Notes under the pieces: generated by a model
Seen by the model: only the letters and a program-made list of their open reading frames with translations
Database searches by the model: none
Told to the model about the DNA's origin: nothing
Shown: positions 890-18,528 of the stretch, piece by piece
Layout: each line of letters starts with the position of its first letter
How positions within the stretch are numbered: position 1 is the stretch's first letter
Virus record (IMG/VR): IMGVR_UViG_3300032219_001391
Location: 1 to 64,000 of that record
Length of the DNA stretch: 64,000 nucleotides
Source: a virus
Taxonomy: Duplodnaviria; Caudoviricetes
Direction: 5' to 3' (one strand)
Program-made: the position numbers and the translations under genes

Positions 890-3800
890 TAGTTGAATAT
901 TTTCTTAAGGTTAAATTGGTCTTTAACACCAAAATTATTATTATCGAACAATTCTCTTGCACGAGTTTTATCATCACTAGTAAATGTAACACCATCATCA
1001 GTAAAGTCAGTAGTTCTTACAACACCTGATGGATATGCATCAAATTCTAAATACTTTGAGTTATTTTGGTCAGTTTTATAATTTTGTACTACCTTTTTCT
1101 CTTCATTTATTTCAGTAATATACACAGGTTTTATTCTAGAATCATAATAAACATATATAAGATCCTTAAAATCTGGACTTGTGTTAAGTGTTAAATTTGA
1201 TATAAATGAATCCGTTTTATTTATAATTTCATTAGCAATTATCATAAACTCTCGTTGATCTACAACACCACCTATACTTGTTTTTGAAATAAACCCACTA
1301 TTTGAAGTACCATCGTAATCATACAATAAAACGCCAGATGTCTCTAAACTCGTTATGAAATCATTATAATAATCTTTAACTTTAGTTAGATCTGATAAAA
1401 TTTGATCAAATACCGCAATATCATGCGTTAATCTATACAGTTGTGGTTCTCCATTTTTAATAAAACCGTCATTATCTGTTAAAACATAATTCATTGAGTC
1501 TATTGTATATACTAAACTCTGTTGTTTTGTTTGTATGTCGTTTATTGTTTTAGCAATTTGATCTAAGAAATTACTTTTATACGTTTTCAAAAAGTTTTTA
1601 TAATTATTCATGAATGTAGTCTTATCAATTTTAGTAGTACTTGGTGCATTTTGTCCTATATAAGTAAAGAAACCTATCTCATCGTTATCTATGTTTTCCA
1701 AAAATTTGTTGAATAAATTATCAACATATGTTTGATAATCACCAGGTATTCCAAAAATTTTAGTATCCAATGGTGTGTTATAGATATCAATTTTACCATT
1801 AACAAATTTTAGATTAGTCGTTAATAACTGAAGAATACCGTAATTATAATTGTTTATAATACCTTCATTAAAATTAACAATTGAATTGACATATTCTTTA
1901 GATTGTGTTAGAAGAGAATCCATGATCTTAGAATATGATATTGTACCAACAACTTTAGTAGTCGCTGATGTAGTACCGGATGGTGTTGTTGATGTTAAAA
2001 TTTCACCAATAGTTGTAGTACCTAATCTAGGTGTTGGTACTTGGATATTTTTAACACCTGTCGGATCACTACCCAAAATAGACGTAACAACCCTTTTATC
2101 AAGTGCCGAAGTGTCTTCGGTAGCATCAGATCTTGGATCATACATTTCAGTATTAGCATAGTAATTAAAACTTAACGCATTTTGTAATTTGTCTATTGGA
2201 CCTTTCAATCCTTGTCCTCCAACGAAATTAAATTGTAATGATACATCAACAATCATAGGTTGAAGTCCGATACCTTCAGGATTTAGATCAAGACCACCAC
2301 TATCATACTTAAAATCAATATTTGTTGGGATAATTTTTGAATTCCAAAAATCACCAACTCTTAATACCAACACCGGTGGTACCCCAAATGCGGTATTTCT
2401 AGCAGCGTTTGTTACTGTTTTACCATCCAAACCTACTGTTGGTATAGTATCACCAGGTCTTGCACATTGTTGTAAGAATGTTAATCTTGAGTTTAGTCCT
2501 TCAGGTGTCATTGAGTGGAAGGCAGGATTAAAATACTTAATCTTTTCTTTGATTGAGTCAAACACAAACGGATCAGTTTCTTTAAGAACGTCAAAGTAAT
2601 CACATTCTGACATCAATCTATTTAATATTTCTTTAGTAATACCGTCTTTAATACCAGTCTCTAATCTTCTACCCGGTTGAGCTGTTGGTTTTTTAGGTTG
2701 TGGTTTATTTGTTGGATTTGGTATTACCTCACCAGGATCCGTATCTATTGGTGCCGGAGTCTCTGTAGGTTCTTCGAACGTTATTTTATTTATAATACCA
2801 GCTCTACAAGCCATCGCCCTAACTGAAAAAATGGTATCACTAACGTTAGATGCCGCTTTTCTATCCGCATCGGTACAGTTATATGAACCAAATGTTTCAT
2901 TATTGGTAAATGATTTAGGATTAACTGTTGTTTGTTCACCAACACCATCACTTACTATTGTTATTTTTTTCTCATCAAAAAGTTTAGGTAATGCCGCCTC
3001 CAAATATTTTTGAATAGAATCAATTCTTCTTTTAGATAAAATTATATTGTAAGCTTGAGACTCAGGTGAAGATGCTGATGCCGTTAAATGAATTGTAACC
3101 GTTTTAACTTTGTTCGTCTCAAATGCTGTTCTTAAATCGTTAATTAGTTTTGTAACCGCAGCAAAATTATCTTTAACAACTTTAGTGAAAAAGTTATTAA
3201 CCGCGTCTGATTGTCCTGTAGGACAATTAGCCTTGTATCTATCTATATTAGAATCTGATGTATAAGTATTATAATATGTATCAAAATTATATAAACTTAC
3301 AGATTCATTTGTTTGTCCATCAGGTGAGTTGTTTTCAAAATAAAAACCAACATTCACATAATTCTTAAAATCAATATTTCCTGTAGTATTTGATATTGTA
3401 CCAGGTTGATAATTAACAGTCTGTAACGCTTCATTAAATTCTTCAGGAGTTGCGTTTGGATTAGTAATAACCTCTTGTACCCACTTTAATTGATCAGGTG
3501 GTATTGTGTTATATTTAATTGCCAAATCATATAAATCGTATTCTCTACAACCCGCAAAAAATGAATTTATAACAGCATCAACTTTTTGTCTATCAGATTC
3601 ATTCGCCAATTTTTTATTAACAATTAAATTTAAGATAGATGGATGATCCACAACAATCTTGAAAGATAACGTTCCTGTTCTTGTAGTATTTTTGTAAGTA
3701 TAAACCGGTTCAGGTCTTCCAAGAAAACTCTCAGTATTGAACTCAGGTTTAGTTGTTTCAGAATATTTTAAGTCATAAGGTGGGAACCACATAATACGAC

Positions 3801-5688
3801 CACCATTAGGTCCTCTCTCACAAACCGGTAAATCAGATACTCTATACCCAAATCTTGAAGAGGTTCTCCAAGCTAAGTTTTCAATACTTAACATGTATTT
3901 CTTAACGTTCTTTTCAGACGCAGTTTTATCTACGTTTGATGATGTCGGTACAATATTAAGGTTATATGTACTATCCAAATTAGAGTATGCAAATTTCCTA
4001 ATATTACCTGTTCTTTTCTGTAAATTAGCAAAAGTAAAATATGGTTGGTCTTTGGCGAAAATCCTACAATATTCTTGACCTTTCTCAATACCACCCTGAT
4101 CAACAAATGAAATTACTTTACTACCTTTTGTAATTTCCTTATAACCATCATTAAAGACTTTTGAAACCTGATCTATAGCATTACCAACATGTGAAAATCT
4201 TTTCTCACCATTTGGTTGTGAATCAATTAGTCGTTGGGTAGTATCTAAAATACTATAAGGTTTTAGATCATAATTGGTTGATTCGTTGGAATCGTAATTA
4301 TTACTAAATTGATTGTATGTCGGATTAGATCCCCCATAATCACCACCAGGTGAAGCATATTTCCCTGCGTTGTTTTTGTATTTTGGAGAAGTCCAAACAA
4401 ATCCTCCCGCAACACCACCACCATCTTCGTATGATCTACCCCCAAGTCCGTTATTGAATTCTAAATTATTTTCAAAATCTTTTGCAAGATACTCAGGACC
4501 ATAAACGGGTGAATTCATTTCACGACCTGTAGGTGAAATTGGTAAATCACCGGGAGGTGATGTAAATGTAGATGGATCTCTATCTTTATCACCTACGTAA
4601 TAATTACCCGCACTGTCTTGTCTATTAAATATGTTGTTAATAGCACCAACAATACCGGTACTATATGTGTAATAAGGTCTATATCTATTTAATTCAACAT
4701 TTTGTTGTAATTGTTGTTTTTGAGCGTTTCCTGTATATCTTAAAAATAATTCAGAAGGTGTTCTACCTCTTGATCCTCTAGTTCCAAACAAAGCACCAAC
4801 AACACCGTCCTTAAACGCTTTAACAACCTGTTGTACACCTCCAACGTTTTGTTGTTCAACATCTTCATCAAAATAATCACCAGGAATTAAAGAAACAGGA
4901 AAATAAGTACCCGCTATCTTTTGTAAGATATCTACCGCATTACCAACTAAACCTCTATTATCAGTAATTCTCCAATCACGATAAATAATTGGTCGTTTAC
5001 CTGCAAGTAATAGAGAAACATTAAATGGATCTCTTAACGCGTCTATTAAACCAACTCTACCTATAGTTTCGTTTCTTACGTTTTGTTGTACTCTATATTC
5101 TAAATTTTTCTTAAGATATTGTAAAGAAAGTTGTGCAGATGCGGAATCAAGTGTTGATGAACCGGCACTACCTGTTGGTACTTTTTGTAATATAACATCA
5201 TACGGTGAATAACTTGATGGTCTAAAACTTGGTGGTTCCCAATAAGGTTGTAATGTACCTTTTGCTAAAATATTTTCCGTTATATTATATGTGAGATCAA
5301 AACCATTTGATGGTGCGTATCTATTTTTAATAACAGCGGCTTCTTGGAAACTTTTTGAATATAACTCAATAGCATCCAAATATTGTGGATAAAATCCATA
5401 TTCTCCTTTGTTTGGGTCTCTTGGTAATAATGTTGAATAGTTCGGATTTCGATTATACCCGTTATTCGGTCCAAATTCATTTAATTTTGACAACCCATCA
5501 ACAAATACATCATCATCAATAAGAACATCGGGTGAATCAATAACCGAAAAATCACCTAATACTGTTTCATAATTTTGTTTACCTATCTGAGGTGAAAAAC
5601 TACCAGGTTTCCTATATGGAACCAAATTACGAACTATTAACTTTTTCCTTAAGGATTCTGTAGCATTAAACGATAACGGACTTCCCAT
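889..5688 (-). CDS. Large baseplate/tail structural protein with an internal OmpA-like domain
   Basis: 1599 aa. Tube-initiator-like segments (FLGRPEPVYTYKNTTRTGTLSFKIVVDHPS; IGLQPMIVDVSLQFNFVGG) flank FYFENN...LTASASSPESQAYNIILSKRRIDSIQKYL...DGVGE (OmpA C-terminal-like). Lies between tape measure and LysM genes. Confidence 0.65.
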   Translation of the reverse strand: MGSPLSFNATESLRKKLIVRNLVPYRKPGSFSPQIGKQNYETVLGDFSVIDSPDVLIDDDVFVDGLSKLNEFGPNNGYNRNPNYSTLLPRDPNKGEYGFYPQYLDAIELYSKSFQEAAVIKNRYAPSNGFDLTYNITENILAKGTLQPYWEPPSFRPSSYSPYDVILQKVPTGSAGSSTLDSASAQLSLQYLKKNLEYRVQQNVRNETIGRVGLIDALRDPFNVSLLLAGKRPIIYRDWRITDNRGLVGNAVDILQKIAGTYFPVSLIPGDYFDEDVEQQNVGGVQQVVKAFKDGVVGALFGTRGSRGRTPSELFLRYTGNAQKQQLQQNVELNRYRPYYTYSTGIVGAINNIFNRQDSAGNYYVGDKDRDPSTFTSPPGDLPISPTGREMNSPVYGPEYLAKDFENNLEFNNGLGGRSYEDGGGVAGGFVWTSPKYKNNAGKYASPGGDYGGSNPTYNQFSNNYDSNESTNYDLKPYSILDTTQRLIDSQPNGEKRFSHVGNAIDQVSKVFNDGYKEITKGSKVISFVDQGGIEKGQEYCRIFAKDQPYFTFANLQKRTGNIRKFAYSNLDSTYNLNIVPTSSNVDKTASEKNVKKYMLSIENLAWRTSSRFGYRVSDLPVCERGPNGGRIMWFPPYDLKYSETTKPEFNTESFLGRPEPVYTYKNTTRTGTLSFKIVVDHPSILNLIVNKKLANESDRQKVDAVINSFFAGCREYDLYDLAIKYNTIPPDQLKWVQEVITNPNATPEEFNEALQTVNYQPGTISNTTGNIDFKNYVNVGFYFENNSPDGQTNESVSLYNFDTYYNTYTSDSNIDRYKANCPTGQSDAVNNFFTKVVKDNFAAVTKLINDLRTAFETNKVKTVTIHLTASASSPESQAYNIILSKRRIDSIQKYLEAALPKLFDEKKITIVSDGVGEQTTVNPKSFTNNETFGSYNCTDADRKAASNVSDTIFSVRAMACRAGIINKITFEEPTETPAPIDTDPGEVIPNPTNKPQPKKPTAQPGRRLETGIKDGITKEILNRLMSECDYFDVLKETDPFVFDSIKEKIKYFNPAFHSMTPEGLNSRLTFLQQCARPGDTIPTVGLDGKTVTNAARNTAFGVPPVLVLRVGDFWNSKIIPTNIDFKYDSGGLDLNPEGIGLQPMIVDVSLQFNFVGGQGLKGPIDKLQNALSFNYYANTEMYDPRSDATEDTSALDKRVVTSILGSDPTGVKNIQVPTPRLGTTTIGEILTSTTPSGTTSATTKVVGTISYSKIMDSLLTQSKEYVNSIVNFNEGIINNYNYGILQLLTTNLKFVNGKIDIYNTPLDTKIFGIPGDYQTYVDNLFNKFLENIDNDEIGFFTYIGQNAPSTTKIDKTTFMNNYKNFLKTYKSNFLDQIAKTINDIQTKQQSLVYTIDSMNYVLTDNDGFIKNGEPQLYRLTHDIAVFDQILSDLTKVKDYYNDFITSLETSGVLLYDYDGTSNSGFISKTSIGGVVDQREFMIIANEIINKTDSFISNLTLNTSPDFKDLIYVYYDSRIKPVYITEINEEKKVVQNYKTDQNNSKYLEFDAYPSGVVRTTDFTDDGVTFTSDDKTRARELFDNNNFGVKDQFNLKKIFN

Positions 5689-5704
5689 CTATATTGTTTT
5701 ATTG

Positions 5705-5711
5705 ATAAATA
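5705..5711 (-). promoter_or_regulatory. TATTTAT putative late promoter
   Basis: 16 nt upstream of the ATG at 5688. Confidence 0.55.
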
Positions 5712-5754
5712 TTATAAATTGTATTTTATAGTAGTGTTCAATTAAATAGGGTCG

Positions 5755-7446
5755 TTAAAAACTAAAACTAGGTAACGATTGTCTTAAAATATTTTTAACA
5801 CCTTCAATAAAATCAGTGTTACTAAGCAATTGATTAGCATCTATAGAATTAGTGGCATTTGACAGATTTAAGTTAATATTACCAATAACATTATGAGTGA
5901 GAGACCCCGTTATCGGATTGGTTGTTGTACCAACAGGATTAGTAGTTGTTGTTGGTATCGTAGATTGTATGTCACTTCTTAAATCCGATACAGTACCAAA
6001 TAAATTATCATAAACACTCTTAAACGTATTAAAATCACCACCACTTCTAGTTCTAAGAGAATTTTCTATGTTTTTTTCATAATTTTTAAATTCATCAACA
6101 AGCTTTTGTGTTTGTTCTGAGGTAATACCTAAAGTTGTTCGTAATTTATCACCTAATTCAGTAGGATTAAAATCCCCACTAGTAACTGCAGATCTTAAAG
6201 TACTTGTTAATACATTTGCAAGTTCAGGACCTGCAGCCGAAACCTTACTTGGTGGTAAGGTTTTTCTAATTATATCAGATAACTCTGATTGTGCATCAGT
6301 TAATGCACCAATAATAGCCTGTCCTGGTGAAATCCCAACACCTAACCCAATAGTGTCTCGTATAGAAGTTAATAAACCTCTTTGAGCCTCTGCCACTGTT
6401 AATTGTCTCTCGGCGATAGATTCCAAAGTTAATGGTTTTGCGGCCTCTTTTAATAACGCTAAATCAGGTTGTGTTAATTCTGAAACTAATTTTTCAACAC
6501 CACCTATTGAAACTGTGAAACCACCTTTATCCTTATTAAAATCTGCCATACCCGCTATCAGGTTTTTTTCTTCTTGGGTAATATTGGGTAAAAGGTTAAT
6601 TTCTTTTGAAACTTCTGCAAATTGTGCTTGAGCTTTAGACAACTTAAAGAACTCGTCGTAACTCATTCCAAGTGTTGTTGATAATTCTTTTGCAGCTCTA
6701 ACACCTTCAGGTGAGAATTGAAATCTACCAGTTTCTTTGTTGAAAGATCCGAACTGTTCTGTCGCTCTTAATGCCGCATCTTGTAAACCTTCAACATCAT
6801 TCTGTGCTAGATACATCAATCTAAATGGATCCGCCAAATCACCAACCGCAACTCCTAACCTTTGAAATGTGTTTACCGCCTCAATGGCACCGTCGGGATC
6901 AAATACCTTTTCAGCAAAATTAAATACCGAAGTCATATCAGAACGTAATGATGCCGCCTTTGCCGCCATTCTAGCTAAACCATCAACACCAGTATTAAAA
7001 CCATATTGATTGGCATTTTTAAGATTACTTTCAACTTGACTAAGTACCGCTTGAGTATTTACACCAAATTTTCTTGAGGTGTTTGATATTTCTTGTAATT
7101 GTTCTCCAATCGTTGATAAAGCATACCCACCTTCATAAAATACGTTTGCCAAAGCACCCATTTGTTCTGCCGATTGACCAAATGCTTTACCTGCACGTAA
7201 AAGTTGTTGTGCGGTATCAACAGATAAAACAAAATTGGTTTTCATATTTGAACCAATTTTTTCTTGTAACTTTGCAACATCTGCTAATTCAAATGCAAAT
7301 CGTCCTACAACATTTTGTATTTCTGCAAAACTTCTATAAATTGATTCTTGTAGTTCTACAGCAGTACCTATAGACGTTTTTGCTTCTATAGATAGTTTCT
7401 GTAGTTCTTGTGCCATTTTTACAAAATCAAAAGGTCCATCAGCCAT
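5755..7446 (-). CDS. Probable tape measure protein
   Basis: 563 aa, helical and A/L/Q/G-rich (GVDGLARMAAKAASLR, FQRLGVAVGDLADPFRLMYLA); directly downstream of tube and chaperone genes. Confidence 0.65.
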   Translation of the reverse strand: MADGPFDFVKMAQELQKLSIEAKTSIGTAVELQESIYRSFAEIQNVVGRFAFELADVAKLQEKIGSNMKTNFVLSVDTAQQLLRAGKAFGQSAEQMGALANVFYEGGYALSTIGEQLQEISNTSRKFGVNTQAVLSQVESNLKNANQYGFNTGVDGLARMAAKAASLRSDMTSVFNFAEKVFDPDGAIEAVNTFQRLGVAVGDLADPFRLMYLAQNDVEGLQDAALRATEQFGSFNKETGRFQFSPEGVRAAKELSTTLGMSYDEFFKLSKAQAQFAEVSKEINLLPNITQEEKNLIAGMADFNKDKGGFTVSIGGVEKLVSELTQPDLALLKEAAKPLTLESIAERQLTVAEAQRGLLTSIRDTIGLGVGISPGQAIIGALTDAQSELSDIIRKTLPPSKVSAAGPELANVLTSTLRSAVTSGDFNPTELGDKLRTTLGITSEQTQKLVDEFKNYEKNIENSLRTRSGGDFNTFKSVYDNLFGTVSDLRSDIQSTIPTTTTNPVGTTTNPITGSLTHNVIGNINLNLSNATNSIDANQLLSNTDFIEGVKNILRQSLPSFSF

Positions 7447-14943: not shown

Positions 14944-14974
14944 TTGATAAATACTTGATTGTTTATTATATTTA
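14944..14974 (+). promoter_or_regulatory. Possible Bacteroidota-type promoter for the helicase
   Basis: TTG (14944-14946), N20, TATATTTA (14967-14974; one mismatch to TAnnTTTG). Confidence 0.35.
14947..14953 (-). promoter_or_regulatory. TATTTAT putative late promoter
   Basis: 4 nt upstream of the neck (gp14-like) ATG. Confidence 0.55.
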
Positions 14975-14984
14975 CCTTTTAAGT

Positions 14985-17834
14985 ATGAATGAAATAAAAA
15001 TCAATCAACCGCTTGAAATTAGAGCACTTGATGTCCTTGATAATTATTCAGGGGCAAACAACTATATTATTAAATTAAAAATCAAAAAAGATACTAATAA
15101 GAAGTTCTATCCCACAAGGAATCAAGCAGAATATATCTTAGCATATAAAGACACTACACCTAAGATTGCAAGAAAATGGGTTAATCTTGATTTATATTTT
15201 GCTAACAAACTTGCGGATGAAAAATTATTAACGGAAGTTCCAACAAAAATATGGGTTGAGAAGTTATTAGTGGAAAAAGATACATCTTATCACATTTGGG
15301 GTAAATTTAATGAACACGAGGAGTTATATGATTTTTGGGTACCAAAATCAGGAATTATTAAAGACAACTCCATTAAAGTTAGTATTGATTATGAAAAGTA
15401 TTCTCATAGACCCCCATTGTCTCACCAAATAGAAGGTATTGAAAAATTAGTTGGGAATAAGAAATATATTCTAGCAGATGATATGGGATTGGGTAAAACA
15501 ACTCAAACAATCATTGCCGCTTTGGAAACGGGTGTTGATAAGATTTTAATCATTAGTCCTGCATCATTAAAGATTAACTGGCAACGTGAAATTGAAAATT
15601 ATACGGATCGTTCAGTTGCTATCATTGATGGTAAAAAATGGGAATCCGCAGATTTCGTTATTGTAAATTACGACATCTTAAAGAATTTTCACGATCCAAA
15701 AAATAGAGAAAATAGTCAGATATTAAATGAAGGTTTTGGTTTGGTTGTTTTAGATGAATGTTTTACATACGATACTAAAATTATCACTGAATTTGGTGAA
15801 AAAAATATTGGAGATATTGTAGAGAATGGGTTAGATGTTAAAATTTTAACATTTAATCACAAAAATAATATTTTTGAATATAAAAAAATAAATAGATGGA
15901 TTAGAAAAAATAAAGACACTATATACAAAATAAAACTCAACAACGGACTATTTATAGAGTGTACTGATAATCATAAGTTCTATGTAAATAATAAAGGATA
16001 TGTTAGAGCAAAAGACCTTACATCAACCGACGACTTGTATATGTTGTCAAAAACCACTTTCAAAGAAACAAATTTGGAAGAAGGGAAAATGTTGTTCAAA
16101 GAGTTGTTCATCAATAATAAGGAACAAAATGTCACCACAAAAACCAAAGGAATTAAAATTTCACAAAAATTGTCCGGAATGTGGAAATATAATGAGTTTC
16201 ACAACAGAAACAAAAATGAAAAAGAAAACATATTGTTCTGTGACATGTTCGAACAAAGTAAAATCAAACAACGTGGAAGTAAAAGAAAAGAGAAAAAAAA
16301 CAATAGAAAAAAATGGTGGGTGGTCAAAAATAATGATAAATACACATATGAAAAATCCTCATATGGCAAAACTATCTTCTCAAAGGATGAAAAAAAACAA
16401 TCCAATGAAAAATTTGGAGAGTTTAGAAAAAATGAAACAAAAATTAAAAGGGAGAACTTTTTTGTCGAGGGGTGGGAATGGCAAAATAACACCTCAACAA
16501 GAAATGTTATTTCAGATGTTAGGGGAAGGTTGGGTGTTGGAATTACCAATTTTAACAGAAAACGTAAAACCTTTATTCAAAAGTTTACCACCTTCTTACA
16601 AAGTGGATATAGGGAATCCAAATTTGAAAATATCAATAGAAGTAGATGGGAAGTCTCACAAAACAAAAAAATGGAAATACTTGGACAGACGAAAGACAAA
16701 GGTATTGAATTCGTTAGGGTGGAAAGTATTGAGATTTTGGAACGAGGAAGTTATGATAAATCCACAAATGTGTATTCAAAAAATACAAGAGTTTATGATT
16801 TAGAAATTGAGGATAATCATAACTATTTTGCTAACAATATCTTAGTAAGTAATTGTCATTATATTCAAAACACACAAGCACAGAGAACAAAACTAATCAA
16901 TGATTTTGTTAAAAAAATTGATAGATTATGGTTATTGACAGGTACACCAATCACATCAAGACCAATCAATTATTATAACTTATTGAATTTAATTGATTCC
17001 CCCGTTGCTATGAATTGGATGGCGTATGTTATCAGATATTGTGAAGGGTATCAATTCAGTGTTGGTAAAAGAAAAGTATGGAATGTTAGTGGTGCATCAA
17101 ATCTTGAAGAACTTCGTGATAGAACATCTCGTCAAGTATTAAGACGTTTGAAAACCGATGTATTGGATCTACCCGAAAAAATCATAACACCAGTCTATCT
17201 TAAATTAAAATCTTATGAATACGAGAGATTGATGGGCGAATATTATGATTGGTACGATAAATCTGAGGAATCAACATCATTGACCGTTCAATTTACCAAA
17301 CTAATGAAAGTTAGACAGGTAATTTCAGAAGAGAAAGTTAAATCAACTATTGAGTTATGTGAGAATATTATTGAACAAGGTAAGAAGGTTATTGTATTTA
17401 CCAATTTTACCAACTCGTTAAATACTATCTTATCACATTTCGGAAAAAAAGCCGTTGGTCTTGATGGTAGTATGCCACAAGGAATGAGACAAGATAATGT
17501 TGATAAATTCCAAAATGATGAAAGTATTATGGTATTTGTTGGGAATATCAAAGCGGCAGGTGTTGGTATTACCTTAACATCCGCCGAGGTTGTAGTTATG
17601 AACGACTTATCATTTGTTCCATCAGACCATTCACAAGCGGAAGATCGTGCATATAGATACGGACAAAAGAATAACGTTTTGGTGTATTACCCTATTTTTG
17701 ATAATACAATTGAGGGTGTTATATACAATATTCTACAGAAAAAGAAAAACATATTTGAAACCGTTATGGGTGATAATCTAAGTAAGGGTGATATTGTTGA
17801 GGAGATTATGAACCTAATCAACACTAAAAGATAA
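14985..17834 (+). CDS. SNF2/SWI2-family helicase (annealing-helicase-like) precursor containing an intein
   Basis: ATG at 14985 (ORF track starts at TTG 14955). Walker A LADDMGLGKT, Walker B LDE|CH split by the intein, motif III LTGTP, motif V AAGVGITLT, motif VI QAEDRAYRYGQ. Predicted spliced product 584 aa. Confidence 0.93.
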   Translation: MNEIKINQPLEIRALDVLDNYSGANNYIIKLKIKKDTNKKFYPTRNQAEYILAYKDTTPKIARKWVNLDLYFANKLADEKLLTEVPTKIWVEKLLVEKDTSYHIWGKFNEHEELYDFWVPKSGIIKDNSIKVSIDYEKYSHRPPLSHQIEGIEKLVGNKKYILADDMGLGKTTQTIIAALETGVDKILIISPASLKINWQREIENYTDRSVAIIDGKKWESADFVIVNYDILKNFHDPKNRENSQILNEGFGLVVLDECFTYDTKIITEFGEKNIGDIVENGLDVKILTFNHKNNIFEYKKINRWIRKNKDTIYKIKLNNGLFIECTDNHKFYVNNKGYVRAKDLTSTDDLYMLSKTTFKETNLEEGKMLFKELFINNKEQNVTTKTKGIKISQKLSGMWKYNEFHNRNKNEKENILFCDMFEQSKIKQRGSKRKEKKNNRKKWWVVKNNDKYTYEKSSYGKTIFSKDEKKQSNEKFGEFRKNETKIKRENFFVEGWEWQNNTSTRNVISDVRGRLGVGITNFNRKRKTFIQKFTTFLQSGYRESKFENINRSRWEVSQNKKMEILGQTKDKGIEFVRVESIEILERGSYDKSTNVYSKNTRVYDLEIEDNHNYFANNILVSNCHYIQNTQAQRTKLINDFVKKIDRLWLLTGTPITSRPINYYNLLNLIDSPVAMNWMAYVIRYCEGYQFSVGKRKVWNVSGASNLEELRDRTSRQVLRRLKTDVLDLPEKIITPVYLKLKSYEYERLMGEYYDWYDKSEESTSLTVQFTKLMKVRQVISEEKVKSTIELCENIIEQGKKVIVFTNFTNSLNTILSHFGKKAVGLDGSMPQGMRQDNVDKFQNDESIMVFVGNIKAAGVGITLTSAEVVVMNDLSFVPSDHSQAEDRAYRYGQKNNVLVYYPIFDNTIEGVIYNILQKKKNIFETVMGDNLSKGDIVEEIMNLINTKR
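15949..15955 (+). promoter_or_regulatory. TATTTAT putative late promoter inside the intein coding sequence
   Basis: 44 nt upstream of the nested endonuclease ATG at 16000. Confidence 0.4.
16000..16803 (+). CDS. Nested +1-frame endonuclease: Cys-rich Zn-binding repeats, NUMOD-like linker and DUF559/Vsr-like PD-(D/E)XK domain
   Basis: CICC...CCSKSC and CPEC...YCSVTC; KNNPMKNLESLEKMK; YKVDIGNPNLKISIEVDGKSH...DRRKTKVLNSLGWKVLRFWNEEV. Lies entirely inside the intein, in a different frame. Confidence 0.88.
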   Translation: MLEQKTLHQPTTCICCQKPLSKKQIWKKGKCCSKSCSSIIRNKMSPQKPKELKFHKNCPECGNIMSFTTETKMKKKTYCSVTCSNKVKSNNVEVKEKRKKTIEKNGGWSKIMINTHMKNPHMAKLSSQRMKKNNPMKNLESLEKMKQKLKGRTFLSRGGNGKITPQQEMLFQMLGEGWVLELPILTENVKPLFKSLPPSYKVDIGNPNLKISIEVDGKSHKTKKWKYLDRRKTKVLNSLGWKVLRFWNEEVMINPQMCIQKIQEFMI

Positions 17835-17850: not shown

Positions 17851-18528
17851 ATGAAACAATTAGAAAGAAAGATAGAATTACTTGAAACGATATTGGAAGG
17901 TAAAAACATTTTTGAGGCAAATTACAAAGCACAAAAATTGGATTATAACCCTAACTCTTTATCCGACTTCATAGACAAGGAAACTATGGATGTCCATTAT
18001 AATGGACATTACAAAACGTACATCAAAAAATTAAATGATCTTCTACCTGATGATCAAACAATTCCAATTGAGGTTTTAATTAAAAAAATATCAAGGTATA
18101 ACAGAAAGGTGAGAAATAATGCCGGTGGTGTTTATAATCATCAACTTTTTTGGAAAATGTTATCACCAAATAAGACAAAACCATCAGAGGAGTTGTTAGA
18201 TAAAATCATTAAAGATTTTGGTTCCTACGATGATTTTAGAAAAAAGTTTGAGAGGGTTGCACAAGATAAATTTGGTTCAGGATGGGTTTGGTTGGTTGTT
18301 GGAAGTAATGGAAAACTTCGTGTTACCTCAACATCAAATCAAGATAACCCTGAGATGAATAATATTAGAGGTGGAGGAAAAGTTTTATTGGGGCTTGACA
18401 TTTGGGAACATGCGTATTATCTTAGCTACCGAAATAAGAGAGACCAATACATCAAGAACTTTTGGAAGGTTGTAAATTGGGATTTCGTAAATTCAGAATA
18501 TCAGAAACTTAAACCAAATAAAAAATGA
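17851..18528 (+). CDS. sodA: Fe/Mn superoxide dismutase (Mn-like signature) with N-terminal extension
   Basis: Metal ligands retained: VHYNGH, NNAGGVYNH, LDIWEHAYY; FGSGWVWL; GG and NQD residues are Mn-type features. Confidence 0.9.
   Translation: MKQLERKIELLETILEGKNIFEANYKAQKLDYNPNSLSDFIDKETMDVHYNGHYKTYIKKLNDLLPDDQTIPIEVLIKKISRYNRKVRNNAGGVYNHQLFWKMLSPNKTKPSEELLDKIIKDFGSYDDFRKKFERVAQDKFGSGWVWLVVGSNGKLRVTSTSNQDNPEMNNIRGGGKVLLGLDIWEHAYYLSYRNKRDQYIKNFWKVVNWDFVNSEYQKLKPNKK

Follow-up and report, generated by a model that had tools for sequence, protein, structure and literature searches.

Can a single stretch of DNA encode an intein in one reading frame and, in another, the endonuclease that would make that intein mobile? 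In most inteins, the endonuclease is believed to form a domain in the intein's own frame, and versions with the endonuclease in an overlapping frame are treated as rarities. The question is raised by a helicase gene in 64,000 nucleotides (nt) of DNA, here called the window, that form positions 1 to 64,000 of the 77-kilobase (kb) virus record IMGVR_UViG_3300032219_001391 (IMG/VR; Duplodnaviria, Caudoviricetes). The window has a GC content of about 31% and carries T4-like tail and baseplate genes, and the phage was described as AT-rich, freshwater and myovirus-like. An initial reading of this DNA, made without database searches (the sequence-only reading), had placed an intein in the helicase and, nested within it in the +1 frame, a separately translated endonuclease gene. 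Analysis of the locus indicated that the two overlapping genes very probably constitute one mobile intein, in which the endonuclease frame and the Hint lobes are under selection and the linker between the lobes is kept free of stops, and that this unit is inherited in a large phage family.

The open reading frame (ORF) at 14955-17834 (+ strand) encodes a SNF2-family helicase with the Pfam domains SNF2-rel_dom, DEAD and Helicase_C. Its frame, designated frame 0 (position mod 3 = 0; the endonuclease frame is +1), contains no stop from 14955 through 17834, and the true helicase start is likely the ATG at 14985 (MNEIK...). The N-extein (14955-15758, +) ends in motif II as ...VVLDE, and the C-extein (16854-17834, +) begins CHYIQN... 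and supplies the rest of the motif (DE|CH). The intein, of 365 amino acids (aa), occupies 15759-16853 (+) and is inserted between the E and the C of VVLDE|CH. Pfam Intein_splicing (PF14890) matched frame 0 with an E-value (E) of 8.9e-16 and a score of 58.5 against a cut-off of 35.8. All marks of a class 1 intein were present, namely C1 (TGT, 15759-15761), T69..H72 of block B (TDNH), block F/G (VYDLEIEDNHNYFANNILVSN), the terminal asparagine of ...LVSN365 (AAT, 16851-16853) and the +1 cysteine (TGT at 16854). C1, T69, H72 and N365 were invariant in 22 aligned inteins, and the penultimate residue is serine and not histidine, as in most of this intein family. When the codons were checked, the coordinates, both terminal residues, the +1 cysteine and the splicing ends all proved to be as the sequence-only reading had given them.

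The centre of the intein differed from its ends. In AlphaFold2 models, aa 1-100 (15759-16058, +; pLDDT, the predicted value of the local distance difference test, 78-92) and aa 314-365 (16698-16853, +; pLDDT 67-91 except for one loop) were predicted as confident beta-rich lobes, consistent with the N-terminal and C-terminal lobes of a Hint fold. The frame-0 linker between them (aa 101-313; 16059-16697, +) had a pLDDT of 31-49 and matched no Pfam domain.

The same nucleotides read in the +1 frame encode a protein of 267 aa (16000-16803, +), of which 94 homologues were recovered. Its ATG at 16000 is drawn from the intein codons TAT GTT and its TAG at 16801 from the block F codons GAT TTA GAA, both as proposed from the sequence. 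A stop in the +1 frame lies five codons before the ATG, and 16000 is therefore the first possible start. The suggestion that this protein is a DUF559/Vsr-like nuclease was borne out by Pfam (DUF559, E 2.6e-14, residues 199-265; MTES_1575, E 3.7e-10) and by structure prediction. An AlphaFold2 model built from a 19-sequence alignment reached a mean pLDDT of 87, so that the +1 protein is predicted to fold and the frame-0 linker is not. The best Foldseek match in the PDB was the catalytic domain of I-Bth0305I (3r3p; probability 1.00, target template modelling (TM) score 0.70), and other matches were the DUF559 protein NGO0050 (3hrl; target TM score 0.79) and Escherichia coli Vsr (1vsr). The Foldseek E-values were modest (about 1e-2) because only the C-terminal 105 of the 267 residues align; a search of the PDB with the profile of the endonuclease family gave an E of 1e-12 for 3hrl and of 0.0014 for 3r3p.

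Three regions were distinguished along the endonuclease. The Vsr-like nuclease domain of the EDxHD type (residues 199-265; 16594-16794, +) contains the putative catalytic residues D203, E214, D216, H220 and D229, all invariant in 19 homologues and aligned in the profile search with the IEV.G...DKRK segment of 3r3p. The N-terminal part contains two cysteine-rich modules of the form CxxC...CSxxC (residues 13-36 and 58-83; 16036-16248, +), in which C32, C58, C61, C79 and C83 were invariant and C16 and C36 nearly so in the same homologues. The family profile of this part gave weak matches to zinc fingers of the GATA, MYM and YacG types (E 0.003-0.2), and the pattern suggests that the modules are likely zinc ribbons for DNA binding. 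Between modules and nuclease lie the motifs RMKxNNPM and GRTFLSRGGNGK (residues 129-162; 16384-16485, +), with M130, N134, P135, G158, G159 and N160 invariant among the 19; a Pfam scan gave no match for this linker, and its conserved motifs may also bind DNA. The Pfam scan of the endonuclease likewise returned no NUMOD or helix-turn-helix (HTH) module, the two Cys4-type modules standing in that position instead.

That frame 0 is open across the whole endonuclease gene could in principle be a matter of chance, and it was assessed from the codons themselves. In this region the +1 frame is open solely at 15988-16800; elsewhere it meets a stop every 10-13 codons or so, in line with the rough figure of one chance stop per 10 codons in the sequence-only reading. 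Over 15988-16800, about 45 stops close the third sense frame. A stop in the helicase frame requires an endonuclease codon that ends in T before a codon that starts with AA, AG or GA. In that context none of the 45 codons able to end in T did so, compared with 57 of 96 elsewhere (Fisher p = 9e-14). Counted over the codons ending in C or T, the ratio was 11 C : 0 T before AA, AG or GA and 5 C : 57 T elsewhere, and the early observation of C-ending codons exactly where T would create a stop thus held over the whole gene. Synonymous codons were also resampled with the endonuclease protein fixed, either by permuting the gene's own codons or by drawing on the codon usage of the window. The resampled sequences had a mean of 15.4 and 27 helicase-frame stops, respectively, and none of 20,000 was free of stops in either test. 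The open helicase frame over the endonuclease gene is far beyond chance. An antisense ORF at 16199-16549 (116 aa) was also considered and was set aside as unsupported; it is probably a by-product of the A-rich sense strand.

Selection was then compared between the frames. The ratio of non-synonymous to synonymous substitution rates (dN/dS) was calculated by the Nei-Gojobori method for the three pairs formed by the window and two relatives (L002 and L003), which have 47-123 differences in the overlap and no indels. For the endonuclease frame it came to 0.11-0.26 and for the intein frame to 1.06-1.7, values from a simple count that is biased for overlapping genes. Differences in the overlap gathered at the third position of endonuclease codons (for example 22, 27 and 67 at positions 1, 2 and 3). 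The periodicity of variable sites in six collinear inteins changed along the element. In the stretches that encode intein only, variable sites peaked at intein codon position 3 (46/79 and 10/15), a peak seen in 15759-15999, and in the linker they peaked at endonuclease position 3, which is frame-0 position 1 (157/305). Two stretches in which both products fold had few variable sites and no periodicity: 16000-16058 (18/59), the last 59 nt of the Hint N-terminal lobe, which double as code for endonuclease residues 1-19, and 16698-16803 (21/106), within the Hint C-terminal lobe, which double as code for the last 35 endonuclease residues (LGWKVLRFWNEEV...) and were the least variable of all. Amino-acid identity in frame 0 was 0.82 and 0.85 in the N and C lobes, respectively, compared with 0.51 in the linker. 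The two frames are both real, and both are under selection. The frame-0 linker is, by prediction, disordered, carries no amino-acid constraint and is kept only free of stops, in agreement with its earlier description as junk.

The states of this locus in related phages were informative about its mobility. Among the 80 helicase homologues closest in viral contigs, 79 were intein-free and read ...IIDE|AHYIQN..., the nearest being 93% identical in protein; in one such allele (L093) the site reads ...ATTGATGAA|GCACATTATATTCAAAAC... in DNA. Intein-free contigs (...ATCATTGATGAAGCACAC...) also occurred beside the intein allele in sequencing runs X2 and X3, with joints from 15742/15746 to 16860. The remaining homologue belongs to a near-identical sister phage (L005/L006, L092) from which a 552-nt segment, corresponding to 16152-16703 (+), is absent. 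This loss is in frame (a multiple of 3) and leaves a 181-aa mini-intein, with the Hint C-terminal lobe kept (L005), and an 87-aa remnant in the +1 frame; its breakpoint falls where the disordered linker ends. Between phages, the identity of intein DNA was 94% for the N part and 85-94% over the overlap, and the flanking helicase DNA of the same phages was 60-72% identical upstream and 74-81% downstream. This step in identity at the insertion site points to horizontal transfer. Taken together, an intein that invades, empty sites that persist beside it and an endonuclease gene that decays fit a homing cycle.

Further deletion and frameshift alleles were observed. A contig of run X3 (depth 7.5) joined 16408 to 16714, with 305 nt inside the endonuclease gene left out, and may represent another deletion variant in the population. 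In a 2-kb metagenome contig (L011), one indel midway through the overlap disrupts the two frames, giving a first ORF (42-1322) with the N-extein, N-intein, linker and C-half of the endonuclease and a second, overlapping ORF (863-1921) with the C-intein and C-extein; the indel could reflect a sequencing error, or the allele could be dead or on its way to a 'fractured gene'. Two otherwise identical contigs differ by 52 nt deleted from L045 relative to L034 (locus about 4230-4285), a loss that cuts the endonuclease short and throws the helicase out of frame immediately ahead of block F, leaving a broken allele.

Decay of this kind leads to the strongest of the alternatives, namely that the +1 ORF of the present phage is an inactive relic, intact merely because its invasion was recent, and that the helicase/intein frame alone matters. 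A homing cycle does predict decay after fixation, the sister phage has already lost its 552 nt, the L011 frameshift and the L045 deletion are other broken alleles, and neither the promoter matches nor the RNA-library contigs described below give direct evidence that the endonuclease is expressed. The window copy is nevertheless full length and retains every residue that is invariant in the 19 homologues, including D203, E214, D216, H220 and D229, and the dN/dS of 0.11-0.26 belongs to the very clade of this endonuclease. Intein-free target alleles are moreover abundant and present in the same samples, and homing is therefore still rewarded. We consider a relic improbable in this phage.

The reading of the locus as one mobile intein made of two genes suggests the following cycle. 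Frame 0 would be translated as helicase with a 365-aa insert, two class 1 Hint lobes joined by an unstructured linker of about 213 aa, and the intein would splice itself out, restoring motif II as DE-C-H. The +1 frame would yield a free-standing endonuclease of 267 aa in which two zinc-ribbon-like modules, a conserved linker and a Vsr-like nuclease of the EDxHD type follow one another, probably translated from its own ATG at 16000. By analogy with I-Bth0305I, this enzyme would probably cut intein-free helicase alleles near ...ATTGATGAA|GCACAT..., and repair of the cut allele would copy the intein in. Selection acts on the endonuclease protein and on both Hint lobes, and on the linker just to keep the helicase frame free of stops, which are avoided by allowing no endonuclease codon to end in T before a codon starting with AA, AG or GA. 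Intein and endonuclease are inherited as a unit, in a phage family at DE|CH-like Walker B/motif II sites of superfamily 2 (SF2) helicases and DnaX-type clamp loaders.

Several observations weigh against this reading. Splicing, separate translation and cleavage are steps that we infer, and the frame-specific dN/dS values carry the bias of the Nei-Gojobori count noted above. The N-terminus of the endonuclease is unlike the NUMOD2/HTH modules of the characterised I-Bth0305I (PMC3239194), and the enzyme is therefore filed as a relative of the nuclease domain and not as a close member of the I-Bth0305I family. The ATG at 16000 has no Shine-Dalgarno sequence at normal distance (an AAAGGA ends 1 nt before it), and sigma-70-like promoter matches in 15400-17000 numbered 7, compared with 8.2 in shuffled sequences. 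RNA evidence is weak. A 216-nt metatranscriptome contig (16457-16672) lies inside the overlap and RNA-library contigs of a relative (X19) cover 15600-16148 at 94-96% identity, and DNA carry-over is possible for both. In RNA run X18, most pieces were 30-nt matches to the A-rich segment 16281-16313 and were discarded as meaningless.

With regard to translation of the endonuclease, a Shine-Dalgarno-like motif 4-20 nt upstream was found for only 4 of the 55 long ORFs of the window, which suggests that the host makes little use of such sites. Four relatives (L073, L074, L087 and L042), whose hosts seem to be Shine-Dalgarno users, carry AGGAGG-like motifs at a distance of 6-9 nt in front of the ATG of the endonuclease. 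No terminator was found in 15400-17000, and the endonuclease start showed no sign of the 5' hairpins of the free-standing genes of Dassa et al.

These data also bear on a second alternative, in which there is no separate endonuclease: ribosomes would slip into the +1 frame near 16000 and return to frame 0 before 16801, so that the product is a canonical intein containing its endonuclease in frame. The region is A-rich and its many homopolymer runs are possibly slippery. Two precise shifts would be required, however, and the RNA around the endonuclease start (15950-16050) folded no more stably than shuffled sequences (z = -0.22). The +1 frame is also closed five codons before the conserved ATG, and relatives carry Shine-Dalgarno sites in front of their own endonuclease ATG. 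A helicase frame kept free of stops over 804 nt, in which 15-27 are expected, would be pointless if ribosomes left that frame. Such frameshifting is very unlikely.

The last alternative, an assembly or sequencing artefact in which two compensating indels put an in-frame endonuclease out of frame, has next to no probability: the long A runs are prone to indel errors, but such indels would leave the openness of frame 0 across the whole overlap unexplained, contigs of two independent studies (runs X2 and X3) over 15600-17000 had no indels and 0-4 mismatches, and independent contigs collinear with the intein share its frames at 84-94% identity. Among the latter, L002 and L003/L004 are collinear over 1095 nt (L002 being short at its end) with both frames open, and both frames were open in L007-L010 as well, though their endonucleases are only 52-53% identical.

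The preferred reading, two selected genes in one mobile intein, was supported well beyond this phage. When viral contigs were searched with the endonuclease alignment, 343 relatives emerged, from which the best 80 were fetched and 79 loci examined. In all 79 (32-91% identity, GC 28-61%), the endonuclease ORF lay wholly inside a host ORF of 470-2578 aa, in the +1 frame, and the third sense frame was closed. No antisense ORF spanned the endonuclease in any of these loci. When the codons of each gene were permuted, the median was 13.4 host-frame stops, and 1 in 23,700 permutations was stop-free. Nearly all of the loci showed intein ends in the host frame (CF.Y.T ... HNYFANGILV[SH]N|C), and in every locus the intein interrupted a helicase or clamp loader at its Walker B/motif II site, inserted at DE|CH, DExH(x)|CK or DEAH|S. 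Intein_splicing was found in all eight host ORFs scanned, which comprised SNF2 and ResIII/DEAD helicases, a helicase-methylase fusion and a DnaX-type clamp loader.

The +1 nesting is common to the endonuclease family down to 32% identity and is therefore old, inherited together with the intein. The sequence-only reading had proposed that a free-standing endonuclease gene invaded a mini-intein. The nested architecture that it described is supported, and the invasion did not take place in this phage, since the nesting is ancient and family-wide. Because the overlap was found in 79 of 79 loci at GC contents of 28-61%, it is the normal, stable state for this endonuclease family. The element is one member of a large, mostly unannotated phage family.

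The constancy of the frame has a possible explanation in the genetic code. A change from NNT to NNC is always synonymous, which means that the endonuclease need not change for any host-frame stop to be removed. Within the other sense frame, a TGA is forced wherever methionine is followed by isoleucine, methionine, threonine, asparagine or lysine; such unavoidable stops number 8 for this endonuclease and at least 1 in all 80 (range, 1-13 per gene). A constraint of this kind possibly explains the fixed +1 frame, although the argument was made after the fact, and common descent could account for the constancy on its own. On the wider proposal the evidence seems to us evenly balanced: the intein and its zinc-ribbon/Vsr-like endonuclease may together make up a large undescribed family of obligately dual-coded mobile elements, which would spread among unrelated P-loop nucleoside triphosphatase (NTPase) genes by way of the DNA encoding Walker B/motif II 'DE|xH', in the +1 frame since this is the sole sense frame in which all host stops can be removed synonymously.

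Some of the helicases contain a second intein. In L003/L013 (L003 helicase ORF 1873-5841), a canonical intein with an in-frame LAGLIDADG endonuclease is present in Walker A (GLGK|...HN|T), and in L034 (ORF 1259-5365) the region upstream of the dual-coded intein gave matches to LAGLIDADG_3 and Hom_end_hint. Both architectures can therefore occur in one gene. In public gene calls for L007-L010, the endonuclease is listed and the surrounding 900-aa helicase is missed or truncated, and automatic annotation thus hides the dual-coded architecture; gene callers often report just one of two overlapping genes. A search of the GenBank phage collection with the intein DNA in distant mode gave no match, and there was therefore no annotated relative to compare. 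Directly downstream of the helicase, at 17851-18528 (+), lies a gene for an Fe/Mn superoxide dismutase, an unusual auxiliary gene for a phage. It occupies the same position in three relatives (L005, L007 and L010), where it is followed by a T4 gp13-like gene.

The element offers a natural system for the study of DNA shared by two proteins, with one unconstrained partner (the linker) and two short stretches in which both products fold. For protein engineering, the natural mini-intein of 181 aa and the parent intein are further candidate tools. The locus supports the view that splicing domains came first and were then invaded by free-standing endonuclease genes.

The sequence-only reading could not say whether this architecture had been reported; overlapping and antisense intein endonucleases have already been described in two bioRxiv preprints, both of which cite Gorbalenya 1998. 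Gosselin, Arsenault and Gogarten (10.1101/2025.01.02.630785) described inteins of actinobacteriophages, in DNA polymerase, capsid, terminase and thymidylate synthase genes, whose endonuclease is in a separate reading frame: an antisense LAGLIDADG type, an antisense VSR-like type, by their account otherwise known solely with split inteins, and an endonuclease VII-like type in sense 'frame 3'. They credited Gorbalenya 1998 with the earliest examples of this kind. They proposed that a free-standing endonuclease gene invaded the intein and saw signs of continuing transfer. The present element resembles theirs in its contiguous host-frame intein, its endonuclease ORF between the splicing blocks and its unfolded in-frame segment, and it differs in that a VSR-like gene with zinc-ribbon modules is on the sense strand, in the +1 frame, in motif II of a helicase. 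Phillips, DeSimone and Gogarten (10.64898/2026.09.14.751524) described a cyanobacterial dnaX intein with a LAGLIDADG endonuclease in a '+2 ORF'. It has in common with the present element a sense overlapping ORF, a disordered in-frame linker, the same frame-specific pattern of dN/dS, a sporadic distribution and coexisting intein-free alleles; its endonuclease type, its '+2 ORF', its cellular host and its single host gene set it apart from the present family of phages and several NTPase families.

Two further systems share the nuclease superfamily. The fractured genes of Dassa et al. 2009 (PMC2677866), from phage-like aquatic metagenomic DNA, are phage-borne and carry a gene for a Vsr-like endonuclease between the N and C parts of a split intein. 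The 3' end of that gene overlaps the start of the C-intein by 6-69 base pairs (bp), compared with about 106 nt here. In fractured genes a stop and a fresh start, separated by a spacer of 27-51 nt, divide the host gene into two ORFs, whereas the present helicase frame is unbroken from 14955 to 17834 and its contiguous intein should splice in cis; the element would be a contiguous counterpart to those split inteins. I-Bth0305I (Taylor et al. 2011, PMC3239194; PDB 3r3p), with N-terminal NUMOD2/HTH modules, is encoded in a group I intron of recA. It is likewise phage-borne in a self-splicing element and shares the Vsr-like nuclease fold, the conserved E/D/H/D residues and an N-terminal DNA-binding region. 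It differs in being intron-encoded and in those modules, in place of which the present enzyme, a predicted nuclease inside an intein, has two CxxC...CSxxC modules.

A full-text search, which covered few subscription journals, found no paper on a sense-strand +1 Vsr-like endonuclease in a contiguous intein, nor any on a family-wide +1 layout at helicase motif II. With a complete endonuclease ORF inside the bounds of the intein, an open host frame and frame-specific selection, the element falls among the overlapping-ORF inteins. It is not a new kind of element; what is new is its endonuclease family, strand, frame and host site within a kind that has been described only recently.

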